Shown one piece after another: positions 201 to 47,581 of a stretch of 52,399 nucleotides of DNA; position 1 is the stretch's first letter, and each line of letters begins with the position of its first letter. The translations under genes were made by a program, and so were the position numbers. The stretch is taken from NCBI GenBank assembly GCA_036518915.1, contig DATDME010000098.1:1-52399 (forward strand), read 5' to 3'. This DNA is from Candidatus Saccharimonadia bacterium (GTDB lineage Bacteria > Patescibacteriota > Saccharimonadia > UBA4664). The notes under the pieces were generated by a model. It saw only the letters and a list, made by a program, of their open reading frames with translations. It made no database searches and was not told the origin of the DNA.

Positions 201-463
201 CGCCTCTGTACAGCCAGGATTTACGAGTAAATTTTGGGGCCGGTTTGAGTGGGGTACGTGTTAGAGCTTTGGGATTAACAGCGGTTAATCTCTTGTCCCT
301 GGCACTTACTCGCTGGCTCCTCAAGGTACGGACGCATGTACCAAGATGCGTTGCAAGGAACGGACGAAGCCCGCAAGGGAGGCGTACTGAGCGTACGCTG
401 ACCGCGGATTGAAGTCTGCGACGCCGCAAGGCGCTTGGGACAAGTGGCCGTTGAAAGGACGAG
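201..463 (+). promoter_or_regulatory. Long, probably structured 5' leader of pnp
   Basis: About 260 nt with no credible ORF. Two GNRA-capped hairpins (370-379 cccGCAAggg; 422-433 cgccGCAAggcg) plus ggtac..gtacc and gcgtac..gtacgc stems. SD aaagga sits just before the ATG at 464. Confidence 0.35.
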
Positions 464-16456: not shown

Positions 16457-17005
16457 TCAAGCTGCGATGTCGGGGACCATGGGCGAAGCGGTATCAAGTT
16501 CGATGGCATCTTGGACGACAATGCGCTTGGGCGTGACATCGACAATTTGTTCGCGGTGAATGAGCGTGGTCTTGCTGGCGGAGGCAAACAGCCGGGGTCC
16601 GACCAAAATCGAGCGGATGAGGGCGGTGAGGCCATCGATATGGTAATCGCGGACAACACCATGGTGATGGCCCCCTTCACTAACCACGGTCCTCCCGATA
16701 GGGTCAAAATCGGCGGCAACAATGTCGCGTAGTCGGACGACGTCATCGAGTTTTAGCAAGTCGGTTTCGCTGTTGATAATTAAGTATTCAATAGTCAGCT
16801 GTCGGATGTCGGAGGTGAGAAGTAGAAATGGGCTGCGCTGGCCTGTTTTAGCACAGCGCAAGGCGACAACCTGAAGATTATCCATGCGGACAATCGGTTT
16901 GATGGTGTGCCCAACTGGCTCGCTGGTCTCTAGACTTAAGATGGGCAGGTCGTGCAGCTGGTTGGCCGGGATAGTCATGCGGCTATTGTATACCCGGCGC
17001 GGCAA
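16457..17005 (-). CDS. Hypothetical protein, possibly a double PRC-barrel fold
   Basis: 182 aa with two similar halves of PRC-barrel-like character. The start is uncertain (TTG 17005 or ATG 16978) and neither has a clear SD. Confidence 0.45.
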   Translation of the reverse strand: MPRRVYNSRMTIPANQLHDLPILSLETSEPVGHTIKPIVRMDNLQVVALRCAKTGQRSPFLLLTSDIRQLTIEYLIINSETDLLKLDDVVRLRDIVAADFDPIGRTVVSEGGHHHGVVRDYHIDGLTALIRSILVGPRLFASASKTTLIHREQIVDVTPKRIVVQDAIELDTASPMVPDIAA

Positions 17006-17108
17006 AAACCGCGTCGTACAGATTGACGATAAGCCGGAATTAAGCTACAATTGTCTGGTTTAACAACTTATTATTAACCTTTTTGCGTTTAGGCTTCGGC
17101 TTAACCGC

Positions 17109-17132
17109 AATCCACTGGAAAACGGGTGGATT
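17109..17132 (+). promoter_or_regulatory. Hairpin in the rpsF leader (possible S6:S18 autoregulatory element)
   Basis: aatccac-tggaaaacgg-gtggatt, 22 nt upstream of the rpsF ATG. The functional assignment is inference only. Confidence 0.25.
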
Positions 17133-17154
17133 TCCAAAGAAAGGACTAGCACGA

Positions 17155-17532
17155 ATGCGAAACGCATACGAACTAGTGGTGCTGTTGCACCCCGATCTGG
17201 AGATTGACGTTGAAGCGCCAATTGCTAAGGTCGAAGGGCTGATCGGCGCGGTCGGTGGTAAAGTTACCAAGCGCGACAACTGGGGCAAGAAGCGCTTGGC
17301 TTACAAGATCAAGCGTCAAGATTTTGCCATTTATGTTTACTTCGAGGTAGAGCTAGAACCGGCGGCCGTGCGCCAGCTGGAAAGCACTATTCTCATCACC
17401 GAAGAGGTGCTGCGGCATTTGCTCGTCGCCCATGAAGAGAGCGAGCCGCAGGCGAATGCGAAGAAGTCGTCCGACAAGAAGCGCGAAGTAACGGCTGAAG
17501 AACCAGCCAAGACCGAGGAGGGAACCAACTAA
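17155..17532 (+). CDS. rpsF: 30S ribosomal protein S6
   Basis: MRNAYELVVLLHPDLE.. The internal ATG at 17155 with SD aaagga is preferred over the ORF-track start at 17083. Acidic C-terminal tail. Confidence 0.93.
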   Translation: MRNAYELVVLLHPDLEIDVEAPIAKVEGLIGAVGGKVTKRDNWGKKRLAYKIKRQDFAIYVYFEVELEPAAVRQLESTILITEEVLRHLLVAHEESEPQANAKKSSDKKREVTAEEPAKTEEGTN

Positions 17533-17996
17533 TGGCCAAGAGCTTTAACCAAGCGATCGTGATGGGTAACTTAACCCGCGACCCCGAACTGCGGACCACG
17601 CCAAGTGGCCAGCAGGTGGCATCGTTCGCGGTTGCCACCAACCGAACCTGGATGGACGGCAGCGGTGAGCGCAAAGAGGCGGTGGAATATCACGAAATTG
17701 TGGCTTGGGGAAAGCTCGGCGAGTTGGCAGCCCAATATCTGTCGAAGGGCCGGAAGGTGATGGTAGTTGGCCGCTTACAGACCCAAAGCTGGGAGAAGGA
17801 CGGCGTGAAGCGGTCGCGCACTGAGATCGTGGCCACGGATGTTAACTTCCTGGATGGGCCTGGCGGCACCGGCAACTTTACCGGTGGTGCGCCGAGCAGC
17901 AGTAATGCTGGTGGCGGCAACCGCAAGTCGGACGACGTGGTTATTCAGGACCTCGACGGCGACCAAACCATCAATCTCGACGACATCCCGTTCTAG
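17532..17996 (+). CDS. ssb: Single-stranded DNA-binding protein
   Basis: 154 aa. OB fold (NQAIVMGNLTRDPELRTTPSG), Gly-rich linker and a C-terminal DDIPF tip. TAATG overlap with rpsF. Confidence 0.95.
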   Translation: MAKSFNQAIVMGNLTRDPELRTTPSGQQVASFAVATNRTWMDGSGERKEAVEYHEIVAWGKLGELAAQYLSKGRKVMVVGRLQTQSWEKDGVKRSRTEIVATDVNFLDGPGGTGNFTGGAPSSSNAGGGNRKSDDVVIQDLDGDQTINLDDIPF

Positions 17997-18005
17997 TCTT
18001 TGCAC

Positions 18006-18104
18006 ATTTTGTACATTTCATCGTCATAGCTTGTGCTCCGCACTCACCGTACGTCTAGTACGGCTCGCTTACGGTGCTCGCTTTTCCTCGAACTGTAGCA
18101 AAAT
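18006..18104. repeat. Palindromic intergenic element E1 (between ssb and rpsR)
   Basis: Arms attttgtaca (18006-18015) and tgtagcaaaat (18094-18104). The core ccgtacgtctagtacggct (18047-18065) matches 47423-47442 apart from a 1-nt indel. Confidence 0.6.
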
Positions 18105-18140
18105 CCGCAAAGCCTAATTAAGTAGCAATAAGGAAATTTA

Positions 18141-18359
18141 ATGGCTAATTTTTACTCAAAGAAAGTTTGTCGGTTTTGTGCCGAGAAAGTCGAATACGTC
18201 GATTACAAAGACGTGAAGCTGTTGCAGCGCTATCTGTCGGCTTATGGCAAAATTGAAGGCCGTAAGCGGACTGGTAACTGCCTGCGCCACCAGCGCCGCG
18301 TCGCCGTGGCTCTTAAGCGGGCCCGTCACATCGCATTGCTGCCATTCGTAGTCCGCTAA
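18141..18359 (+). CDS. rpsR: 30S ribosomal protein S18
   Basis: 72 aa. [31 protein letters not shown] aagga. Confidence 0.95.
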
Positions 18360-18371
18360 CAAGGAGCTCAC

Positions 18372-18935
18372 ATGGTTCTAGGTCACACCGATTTAAAAGT
18401 TGGGACGCTGATCGAACTCGATGGCGTGCCATATCGTGTAACTGACTACACTCATAAGGCCATGGGCCGGGGTGGAGCAGTGGTGCAGGTGAAAATAAAA
18501 AACCTGCTGACGGGTAACATTCTGGAGCGCTCGTTCCGGTCGGCCGACAAAGTGAACTCGGCGGAGGTGGTGCGGGCCAACGTGCAGCTGCTGTACCGTG
18601 AGGGCGCCAATATGGTCTTCATGAACAACGAAACCTATGAGCAAGACACGGTGGCGGCGGATCTCCTGGGGGAGCAGGCCAAATATGTGGCTGAAAGCTC
18701 GAACGTGCAGCTGCTGAGCTTCAATGACAAGGTAATTGGCATGGAAATGCCCAACGCGGTGTTCCTGAGCGTGGCCGAAACCGAGCCGGGCGCCAAGGGC
18801 GATACTGCCACTACGGCGCTTAAACCGGCGGTACTGGAGACCGGCGCGAGCGTGATGGTGCCGTTGTTTATCAACGAAGGCGACCGAATCAAGGTCAACA
18901 CGCTGAGCGGTGATTACCTAGAGCGCGCCAAGTAG
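18372..18935 (+). CDS. efp: Elongation factor P (Arg at the modification-loop tip)
   Basis: 187 aa. The loop KAMGRGGAVVQVKIKNLLTG resembles Arg32-type EF-P (KSGRNAAVVKMKLKNLLTG in Pseudomonas). SD aaggag. Confidence 0.93.
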   Translation: MVLGHTDLKVGTLIELDGVPYRVTDYTHKAMGRGGAVVQVKIKNLLTGNILERSFRSADKVNSAEVVRANVQLLYREGANMVFMNNETYEQDTVAADLLGEQAKYVAESSNVQLLSFNDKVIGMEMPNAVFLSVAETEPGAKGDTATTALKPAVLETGASVMVPLFINEGDRIKVNTLSGDYLERAK

Positions 18936-19066
18936 CCATGCGGCTTGTGTTGTCATACCCGTATACGGGTGAAGACAGGGTGGTCATTCACGACATAATG
19001 CAAACCGCAGGTTGTCGCTTTGACCGCCGGGTTGGTAGCTGTTGATTGGTCATGCATAGGAGTGTC

Positions 19067-19825
19067 GTGAAACGACGGCTGGATCAGCTACTCGTTGAGC
19101 GGGACCTGGCGCCCAGCCGGACGCAGGCGCAGGCATTAATTATGGCCGGACTGGTGTCGGCGGACGGCCGGCGCCTGGATAAGCCCGGCTTGATGGTGCC
19201 GGAGGATTTGGTGCTGCAGGTGAAGCATCAGCCGCGGTATGTCAGCCGCGCCGGCGAGAAGCTGGCGAGTGTGGTGGAGGCGCTGGGCTTGGAATTTGCC
19301 GGCCAAACCGTGCTGGATGTGGGCTCATCAACCGGCGGCTTCACAGACTTCGCGCTGCAGCAGGGCGCGGCCCGGGTGTACTGCGTGGACGTCGGCACCA
19401 ACCAGTTGGCCTTTAAGTTGCGTCAGGATGAACGGGTGGTGGTGATGGAGCGAACGGATATCCGCGCCGTGACGCTCGGTGATGGTGCAACTGGGGGTGT
19501 GGGTGCGGCGGCCGCTCTGCCCGCGGCGGTGGACATGGCGGTGATGGATGTGTCGTTTGTGTCACTGACGAAAGTACTTGAGGCCACTCGGGCTCTCGTA
19601 AAGCCGGGCGGAGTGATTGTGGCGATGGCTAAGCCGCAATTTGAGGCAGGTAAAGCGCTGGCAGATAAATATCATGGCGTGATACCGCTAGGAGCGGAGC
19701 GTGAGGCTGTGCTTGAAGAGCTACGACATTGGCTCCTGGAGCATGGCTTCACTATTCTGGCCGAGGCAAATTCGGGTTTGGCTGGGGCTGAGGGTAATGT
19801 GGAACGATTTTTTAAGCTCCTATAG
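19067..19825 (+). CDS. tlyA: TlyA-family rRNA 2'-O-methyltransferase
   Basis: S4-like N-terminus (KRRLDQLLVERDLAPSRTQAQALI) and SAM motif DVGSSTGGFTD. GTG 19067 with SD aggag is preferred over the ORF-track start at 19046. Confidence 0.85.
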   Translation: MKRRLDQLLVERDLAPSRTQAQALIMAGLVSADGRRLDKPGLMVPEDLVLQVKHQPRYVSRAGEKLASVVEALGLEFAGQTVLDVGSSTGGFTDFALQQGAARVYCVDVGTNQLAFKLRQDERVVVMERTDIRAVTLGDGATGGVGAAAALPAAVDMAVMDVSFVSLTKVLEATRALVKPGGVIVAMAKPQFEAGKALADKYHGVIPLGAEREAVLEELRHWLLEHGFTILAEANSGLAGAEGNVERFFKLL

Positions 19826-19914
19826 CCCCCGCAAAACAAAACGTGTCTTTTCGCACCGATGATTCTGAACTCACGAGCACGGTGAGGGCACACGTTTGTT
19901 TTGCGGGGGCTATA
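19820..19914. repeat. Palindromic intergenic element, copy B (compact, complete)
   Basis: Left arm tatagcccccgcaaaacaaaacgtgt (19821-19846) pairs with acacgtttgttttgcgggggctata (19890-19914), with one bulge. The core contains a ctcac-gagcacg-gtgag hairpin. It overlaps the tlyA stop codon and lies between convergent tlyA and ychF. Confidence 0.75.
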
Positions 19915-47292: not shown

Positions 47293-47368
47293 GCCGATGT
47301 AGCTCAGTTGGTAGAGCAGTGCTTTCGTAAAGCAAAGGTCATGGGTTCGAGTCCCTTCATCGGCTCCA
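47293..47368 (+). tRNA. tRNA-Thr (anticodon CGT)
   Basis: GCCGATG-TA-GCTC-AGTTGGTA-GAGC..ttCGTaa..TTCGAGT..CATCGGC-T-CCA. One mismatch each in the anticodon and T stems. Confidence 0.8.
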
Positions 47369-47376
47369 GGGTGAGC

Positions 47377-47487
47377 CTTTTACAGTGCATATCGCTTCGT
47401 CTGATGCTGCAGTTCTCCTGCGCCGTACGTCTATGTACGGCTTAGTCCGGGCTTCGCTTCATCCTGGCGCTATATCACTGTAAAAGT
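47377..47487. repeat. Palindromic intergenic element E2 (spacer between tRNA-Thr and tRNA-Gly)
   Basis: Arms cttttacagtg (47377-47387) and cactgtaaaag (47477-47487) are perfectly complementary. The core ccgtacgtctatgtacggct (47423-47442) is shared with E1. Confidence 0.65.
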
Positions 47488-47507
47488 CTCACTGTGGGCT
47501 CAAGCCT

Positions 47508-47581
47508 GCGGGTATAGTACATCGGTAGTATGCGACCTTCCCAAGGTTGAGAGACGGGTTCGATTCCCGTTACCCGCTCCA
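47508..47581 (+). tRNA. tRNA-Gly (anticodon CCC)
   Basis: GCGGGTA..CGACC-ttCCCaa-GGTTG..ACGGG-TTCGATT-CCCGT-TACCCGC-T-CCA. Confidence 0.88.

Follow-up and report, generated by a model that had tools for sequence, protein, structure and literature searches.

Rickettsia palindromic elements (RPEs) are palindromic repeats of ~100-150 bp that lie in intergenic DNA and also in frame within unrelated housekeeping genes, have no known transposase, and survive as old, diverged copies (PMC10969869). ERIC sequences (named for enterobacterial repetitive intergenic consensus), imperfect palindromes of ~127 bp with a conserved central inverted repeat, occupy transcribed spacers and occasionally the interior of genes, in numbers that vary greatly among relatives, and Correia elements are TA-flanked hairpins of ~100-200 bp that are co-transcribed and whose transcripts are cut by RNase III (PMC10969869). 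Here I describe two elements, E1 and E2, of a Candidatus Saccharimonadia bacterium (assembly GCA_036518915.1), both on contig DATDME010000098.1, whose whole length of 52,399 nucleotides is referred to below as the window. E1 fills the spacer between ssb and rpsR in the rpsF-ssb-rpsR-rplI operon and E2 the spacer between a tRNA-Thr and a tRNA-Gly gene. Both are ordinary members of a large, old family, and neither is a device serving the rpsF operon or the tRNA pair. Each is probably a separate insertion of a selfish, non-autonomous palindromic element resembling RPEs or MITEs (miniature transposable elements with inverted repeats).

The family resembles RPEs in size, in its occurrence in a reduced symbiont or parasite genome, in having both intergenic and in-frame copies (here in valS, ileS, tsaD and a DNA-alkylation-repair gene), in having no known transposase, and in the age and divergence of those copies. 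It belongs to another phylum, however, so that kinship in sequence is not expected, and the two are likened by kind, through the published descriptions of RPEs, with no claim of common descent; furthermore, the copies described here are mostly intergenic, their outer stem is hypervariable but compensated, and their orientation follows the polarity of replication. With ERIC sequences the family shares its size, a central inverted repeat, a home in transcribed spacers, variable copy number and some intragenic copies, whereas ERIC sequences are conserved over their full length, ends included, and are found in Gammaproteobacteria. Neither replication polarity nor strand-specific pairing is known to have been reported for them. 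Correia elements are hairpins of similar size, co-transcribed with their neighbours, as is plausible here, and flanked by TA, as E1 is, but their 26-bp terminal inverted repeats are conserved and they carry promoters and an IHF site, whereas here the termini vary and a duplication of TA is unproven. Like generic MITEs, the elements are small (122-128 nt), non-coding and multi-copy (21 copies here, 32 in the closed genome G081 introduced below), but they have no terminal inverted repeats in common, and no parent insertion sequence or matching transposase was found with the Y1, DDE_3 and RVT_1 profiles. A more distant likeness is to attC sites, imperfect palindromes of 57-141 bp of which one specific strand folds, that strand being kept on the leading-strand template in chromosomal arrays. 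The ends of attC sites (R and L boxes) are conserved and their centre is variable, which is the reverse of the arrangement here, and attC sites stand in cassette arrays next to intI, whereas this family is dispersed over 18 contigs.

A hairpin family with a compensated outer stem

All of the strings that an initial annotation, made from the letters of the window, had quoted for E1 and E2 lie where it had placed them. The E1 core, CCGTACGTCTA-GTACGGCT (18047-18065), and the E2 core, CCGTACGTCTATGTACGGCT (47423-47442), differ in alignment by a single inserted T. The closing arms are present as described (attttgtaca/tgtagcaaaat in E1 and a perfect 11-bp cttttacagtg/cactgtaaaag in E2), and the core does form a 6-bp hairpin, which in E1 is the apical CCGTAC-GTCTA-GTACGG. 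The two spacers, 144 nt between ssb and rpsR and 139 nt between the tRNA genes, as had been reported, are identical in 75% of their alignment columns; the core that they share is 19-20 nt long, and its 18-mer pattern has a chance expectation of 0.01 per window. E1 and E2 fold much more stably than shuffled sequences, with z = -2.1 to -6.1 as RNA and -3.0 to -6.5 as DNA. Each spacer folds as a single long imperfect hairpin, and it is here that the initial annotation needed revision: the elements are real, but both are longer than it had drawn them (Table 1, where the limits of E1 are approximate). The stop codon of ssb (TAG, 17994-17996) is part of the E1 hairpin and closes its base by pairing with CTA.

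The core is not confined to these two sites. Blastn and iterated nhmmer searches over the whole assembly (1.06 Mb in 104 contigs, 58.8% GC, 94% complete) found 21 full copies and two fragments spread over the 18 contigs, with E1 and E2 among the full copies. A full element is ~122-128 nt long, and cleanly bounded hairpins measure 122-125 nt. In most copies the variable stem reaches 10-15 bp past the ends of the hidden Markov model (HMM), and the size of the unit is thus constant. Two partial matches, on contigs C31 and C10, lie beside ordinary genes; they represent a truncated remnant and a shorter variant, and not the ends of some longer element.

Hereafter, the F strand is the reverse complement of the plus strand of E1 and E2, and it is purine-rich. 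In the alignment of copies an interior of ~95 nt is conserved (...GCGCATTnCnnCGTC...TCCGCAnTCAnCGTACGTCTAnGTACGnCTCnTTTGCGG..CTCG..TCCTTGnACTGCATC), including a CGTAC...GTACG apical stem and purine-rich internal loops. The outer stem of ~16 bp is different in each copy and complementary within it, as in the copy on contig C48, where the outer arm CTAAATTACCCCCGTTTG pairs with CAAACGGGGGTAATTTAG. The apical stem itself covaries, CGTAC/GTACG exchanging with CGTAG/CTACG, and RNAalifold, given the 21 copies in F orientation, returned 35 pairs, 27 of them with compensatory changes. The range scans and a larger alignment relied on R1, a covariance model built from the 21-copy alignment. Across the 73 copies aligned to R1, drawn from this genome, one closed genome and 13 others, the paired share of cells is 90.8%; shuffling lowers it to 63% and sliding the partner to 25-40%. 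Of the 35 pairs, 34 have changed on both sides.

Pairing is also specific to one strand. When the 73 copies are read on the F strand, G·T cells number 196 and A·C cells 58 (P = 1e-18), a tolerance of G·T that survives removal of the three wobble-rich pairs (99 against 55), and the F strand gives the better fold in 18 of the 21 copies of this genome (summed energy -1159 against -974 kcal/mol). Within a genome, core identity averages 0.62-0.65 and reaches at most 0.86-0.88, and the identity of outer stems is 0.34-0.40. A strongly constrained core with arms constrained only to pair is enough to give this pattern.

Copy number varies widely among relatives, from 0 to 21 in 26 genomes of the same taxonomic family, where members other than this one have 0-11 and the two genomes of the same genus have 0 and 2. 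A class-wide R1 scan, in which a per-genome figure of 11 means at least 11, found the element in 120 of 301 sampled genomes and in 85 of 160 genera. The closed genome G081 (OY970378.1, 1,189,924 bp; L133-L192), from the same order, has 32 copies. Outside the class, 21 Patescibacteria genomes gave R1 matches of up to 102 bits. No match to the family was found among GenBank phages or PLSDB plasmids, nor in 2.9 million viral contigs, where sensitivity was moderate, the looser of the two patterns used recovering nine of the 21 copies of this genome itself.

A known RNA family was considered and set aside, since Rfam matched only four tRNAs in the window at the gathering threshold, and five copies searched at E <= 5 gave nothing but noise. 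Group II intron domain V, the hammerhead and the K-turn, compared by eye, were likewise rejected, as the spacing fits none of them. The family appears to be undescribed: the phrase 'palindromic element' is absent from the best-ranked full-text literature matches for that phrase together with names of the candidate phyla radiation (CPR).

Three observations concern the arrangement of individual copies. In G081 there are three tandem pairs whose members lie ~100 nt apart (155465/155598, 965687/965793 and 1149958/1150078). In the same genome, a 15-nt internal insertion of like kind, CGTCAGCYGACGGA, a small hairpin in its own right, is present in the copies at 339424 and 516051. Immediately 5' of the copy at 4230-4357 on contig C22, the 9-mer CAAATCTCG is repeated back to back, and the second occurrence is the start of the outer stem.

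Empty sites in relatives and copies within protein genes

The expectation that both spacers are normally short was borne out by their counterparts in relatives. In 80 loci compared around ssb, the three closest relatives (82-86% Ssb identity) have 14-21 nt between ssb and rpsR, and most others 14-42 nt. Between the tRNA-Thr and tRNA-Gly genes, both genomes of the same genus have 2-3 nt and most of the family 1-18 nt. Both insertions are thus additional DNA that close relatives lack. A minority of relatives do have a family copy between ssb and rpsR. Those at L023 and L043 are clearly orthologous to E1, sharing the ends TAGTCyTTT...AAAGyCCTAA and showing a compensated change in the outer stem; some relatives hold a copy in the neighbouring rpsR-rplI spacer. 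The tRNA spacer likewise holds a family copy in two other genera (G013 and G018), where it is turned the opposite way to E2. Four soil metagenome DNA runs that hold the ssb locus contain only the filled ssb-rpsR allele.

In G002 (L219) and G003 (L230) the tRNA-Thr/tRNA-Gly spacer is 452-474 nt long and opens with a G+C-rich perfect hairpin (e.g. CAACCCTCCGGTGCAGACGCACCGGAGGGTTG); here the site was taken by a different insertion.

Copies also lie in frame within genes. In this genome, outside the window, valS contains a copy (contig C13, 7571-7698) whose F strand is the sense strand. The insert sits between FKPEGNA and PFTIIMPPPN, so that the protein reads ...WEDSGAFKPEGNA[HLRGLVGDEMQGDAEQRNKAYTDVLRMSSTGNDEAARSE]KDPFTIIMPPPN where relatives without it read FKPNPKAPKDPFTII, and it adds ~38-43 residues just before the PPPNxxG(H/D)xH motif. 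A decaying version of this insert is common to G008, G002, G022 and G013. In the valS copy, native-looking KDPF codons are paired with the opposite arm, and an ortholog has the motif in addition to the native codons. Copies may have arisen by insertion into a pre-existing palindrome or by inverted duplication of the target; the KDPF pairing speaks for this and the extra motif of the ortholog against it. A second model match in G008 (C3, 58886-59013) falls in the span of a 947-codon valS frame that starts near 57328, and may be another in-frame copy.

A single copy in ileS, found in five genomes of one genus, lies within an uninterrupted frame and accounts for ~36-40 residues that are extra relative to the IleRS of this genome, exactly at the element. 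G154 has a further in-frame copy in tsaD and G081 one in a DNA-alkylation-repair gene; in this genome, the tail of an NYN-domain gene contains another. Copies within coding sequence occur in both orientations. As a further difference from RPEs, only one frame of the pyrimidine-rich strand is preferentially open here, in 36 of 68 copies against 13.5 expected. Of the three roles that the initial annotation had offered for E1 and E2 (processing sites, riboregulators or selfish inserts), it is the last that is supported, by the short spacers of relatives, the range of copy number, the tRNA-spacer copies in opposite orientation and the copies in frame.

Orientation, movement and competing explanations

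In this genome copies occupy tight spacers, 13-30 nt from the neighbouring genes, which leaves no room for a promoter or terminator of their own. Between co-directional genes their orientation is mixed, 7 to 5. In G081, by comparison, orientation is locked to replication: the F strand is the minus strand in 21 of 21 copies at 155-667 kb and the plus strand in 11 of 11 at 758-1162 kb. With dnaA at 94 kb and a switch in gene-strand bias and GC skew at ~600-700 kb, the F strand is on the lagging strand, that is, the leading-strand template, in all 32 copies. Roughly 70% of G081 genes are on the leading strand, and gene direction alone is thus insufficient to explain 32 of 32. At four sites of gene convergence, one in the left replichore and three in the right, the copy lies directly against the leading-strand gene. 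In 19 of the 32 copies a co-oriented gene has its stop codon, which is paired in the stem, 13-22 nt ahead of the start of the core. Among other closed genomes, with the origin placed at dnaA and the terminus across from it, 23 of 27 copies obey the same rule (binomial P = 1.6e-4). Exceptions are found in this genome, where orientation is mixed within contigs, both in the window, whose third copy (325-452) is opposed to E1 and E2, and on contig C97.

The GC skew of G081 is itself unusual for a closed genome in being one-sided: over the first ~650 kb of the plus strand it is strongly positive (+0.06 to +0.13), and over the other replichore it is near zero, not negative.

At exactly 16 nt beyond the anchors of the core, TA is over-represented, occurring in 16 of 68 copies on one side and 13 of 69 on the other, over a background of ~3 in 70, and there is a weak terminal preference for G-C at alignment columns 7/210 (40 of 71 copies). 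E1 is flanked by TA at 17994-17995, within the ssb stop codon, and at 18115-18116. Removal of E1 together with one TA restores 'TTC TAA TTAAG..AGGAAATTTA ATG', which resembles the empty sites of relatives and is a plausible junction of stop codon and ribosome-binding site (RBS). The stop codon and the bases matching it in the palindrome could also account for the TA on either side of E1.

If E1 and E2 are selfish insertions, the unit would be the entire imperfect hairpin of ~122-128 bp, with its conserved ~95-nt interior and an outer stem of ~16 bp held only to complementarity. Copies would persist where they do no harm: after stop codons ahead of the next RBS, between tRNA genes, in 5' leaders and in tolerant loops of proteins. 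Survival at such sites would make E1 a passive passenger on the operon transcript and E2 one on the tRNA precursor. Spread may have taken place by transposition in trans that passed through single-stranded DNA at the replication fork, and perhaps also by homologous recombination of filled alleles between lineages through highly conserved flanking genes. As E2 is younger than the divergence of the genus and yet has no close paralog in this genome, recombination through the near-invariant tRNA genes is a likely second route. Most present copies would be old, and they are probably immobile.

A number of observations weigh against selfish insertion. No mobilising gene was found: Y1/HUH (PF01797), IS630-type DDE_3 (PF13358) and reverse transcriptase (PF00078) are either absent or do not track copy number, and RAYT/IS200, IS630 DDE and reverse-transcriptase enzymes were rejected as mobilisers because none co-occurs with the element. 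Recent copies are lacking as well. With a mean core identity of ~0.63 and a best value of 0.86-0.88 within a genome, active transposition is unsupported, and a recent burst was discarded, no pair exceeding 0.88. The terminal arms are not conserved between copies, unlike the inverted repeats of classical MITEs. There is no clear target duplication, E2 has no TA flanks, and a comparison of orthologous empty sites between pilB and pilC was ambiguous. Furthermore, the conservation looks functional, since a compensated stem, conserved G·U and an interior recognisable across the phylum are also expected of a functional structured nucleic acid. Two caveats are statistical: the alignment behind the pair counts was fitted to the model, so the structure is somewhat favoured, and orthologous copies are not independent in the polarity counts.

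One rival proposal makes the family a structured RNA module that serves the host, acting as a site of processing (by RNase III or otherwise), as a 3' stabiliser of the message upstream or as a regulator of its coupling with the gene downstream; E1 and E2 would thereby shape ssb and rpsR expression and tRNA maturation. I consider this unlikely, although it would account for the strong covariation with some G·U positions conserved, for the interior conserved across the phylum and for the 19 of 32 G081 copies that begin 13-22 nt past a stop codon which is paired in the stem. It also has a precedent in transcribed Correia and ERIC elements, which are cut by RNase III or affect mRNA decay (PMC10969869). 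However, the better-pairing strand is usually antisense to the flanking genes (the operon mRNA bears the complement of the F strand of E1) and there is no space for a promoter to transcribe it. Gene-relative orientation in this genome is close to even, at 7 to 5, the same tRNA spacer holds either orientation in different genera, close relatives do without the element at the same essential loci, some copies lie within coding sequence, and Rfam yields no match.

The compensated hypervariable stem, the strand-specific pairing and the replication-locked orientation nevertheless leave room for a new single-stranded-DNA mechanism or function. A minor but real possibility is a replication-coupled CPR hairpin element whose core would be recognised as single-stranded DNA, whose extent would be fixed by distance (16 nt, often at TA) and not by sequence, and whose stable strand would in every copy lie on the leading-strand template, representing either a new transposition pathway or a domesticated polarity signal. 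Taken as a full alternative for E1 and E2, an element acting as single-stranded DNA at the fork, whether domesticated for priming, fork handling or chromosome polarity or a new single-strand mobile type with core-measured ends, is quite unlikely. In its favour are the orientation that follows the replichore in 32 of 32 and 23 of 27 copies, above the ~70% leading-strand bias of genes, the attachment of copies to the leading-strand gene at convergent sites, the strand-specific pairing, and TA at a fixed 16 ± 1 nt from the core. Yet the better-folding strand is on the leading-strand template, where it is least exposed as single-stranded DNA, orientations are mixed within single contigs of this genome (325-452 against E1 and E2; C97), no candidate enzyme emerged from the Y1, DDE_3 and RVT_1 profiles, and many genomes have 0-1 copies, contrary to a general function in replication.

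Orientation linked to replication is typical of Y1 transposition (IS608, ISDra2). This, together with the long hairpin repeats and their single-strand character, recalls REP sequences (repetitive, extragenic and palindromic) and REPINs moved by a REP-associated tyrosine transposase (RAYT), or a palindrome-associated IS200/IS605 derivative. The foot of the inner stem even has a conserved CGTC, and CGTC-tagged REPs are known (PMC3733652). Such an origin is nonetheless very improbable: PF01797 is missing both from this 94%-complete genome (G000), which has 21 copies, and from G013, G014 and G015, which have 6-11, and a relative with ten IS200-type genes has no copy of the element. Moreover, no short REP unit of 20-40 nt exists here, and the folded strand is on the template opposite to that expected of IS200/IS605.

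CPR genomes of ~1 Mb have hardly any spare DNA, and yet they can keep as many as 32 copies of a 125-bp hairpin, which is found even within aminoacyl-tRNA synthetase genes. For annotators, the element is a marker that accounts for long spacers, false N-terminal extensions and odd protein inserts, and it is a possible source of assembly breaks in metagenome-assembled genomes. It also provides a second, independent instance of the RPE phenomenon in a reduced symbiont genome. Saccharibacteria are reportedly now transformable (PMC10633639), and the combination of replichore polarity, strand-specific pairing and compensated stems without a known transposase makes the movement and tolerance of the element open to testing there.

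Features of the window and minor observations

Table 1. Elements of the family and adjoining genes in the window.
Feature	Position	Strand	Basis and remarks
E1, full copy, ssb-rpsR spacer	17994..18116	(-), the purine-rich, better-pairing F strand	Covariance-model match 17993-18119 minus, 114 bits; folds
E1 apical hairpin	18047..18063		Sequence and fold; stem covaries across copies
E2, full copy, tRNA-Thr(CGT)/tRNA-Gly(CCC) spacer	47370..47493	F on (-)	Covariance-model match 47369-47496 minus, 108 bits; folds
Third copy of the window	325..452	F on (+), opposite to E1 and E2	Covariance-model match 325-452 plus, 96.6 bits; nhmmer
ssb	17532..17996	(+)	Open reading frame list; translation ends DDIPF
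rpsR (S18)	18141..18359	(+)	RBS AAGGAAA positioned 3' of E1
tRNA-Thr (CGT)	47293..47368	(+)	ARAGORN, Rfam; E2 begins 2 nt later
tRNA-Gly (CCC)	47508..47581	(+)	ARAGORN, Rfam; 14 nt past E2

The third copy lies 12 nt upstream of a gene starting at 464. The window also holds two repeats of another kind, A and B (1-141 and 19810-19914), to which the initial annotation had thought E1 might be related through shared motifs. That kinship did not hold up: the HMM of the family gives no match to A or B even at E <= 1000 (nhmmer), and the best local alignment of E1 with B scores 9.0, which is chance level beside a shuffle mean of 9.7. A and B are TA-flanked and have a conserved 26-bp terminal inverted repeat, TATAGCCCCCGCAAAACAAAACGTGT, whereas the family of E1 and E2 has none. 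The copy at 1-141 is cut by the end of the contig. Elsewhere in this genome, fragments of an IS630-type DDE_3 gene lie at the ends of contigs C64 and C79.

A scan of 16900-19100 revealed no intrinsic terminator anywhere in that range and no promoter-like or terminator-like site in the ssb-rpsR interval. The element was accordingly rejected as an intrinsic terminator; in the direction of the genes, the flank 3' of the hairpin has A's and no run of T. Upstream of rpsF, at 17023-17051, there is a promoter-like TTGACG-17-TACAAT (10 of 12 matches), which fits a single rpsF-ssb-rpsR-rplI transcript including E1. It is plausible that E1 is co-transcribed with the operon and E2 with the tRNA pair, and both may be processed. 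Within the spacer that holds E2 (window 47369-47507), the E2 hairpin and tRNA-Gly are separated by 14 nt, GTGGGCTCAAGCCT, which fold as a separate small GGCT/AGCC hairpin. Nothing corresponds to these 14 nt in the 2-3-nt spacers of the same genus, and the gain at the E2 site therefore exceeds the 124-nt element.

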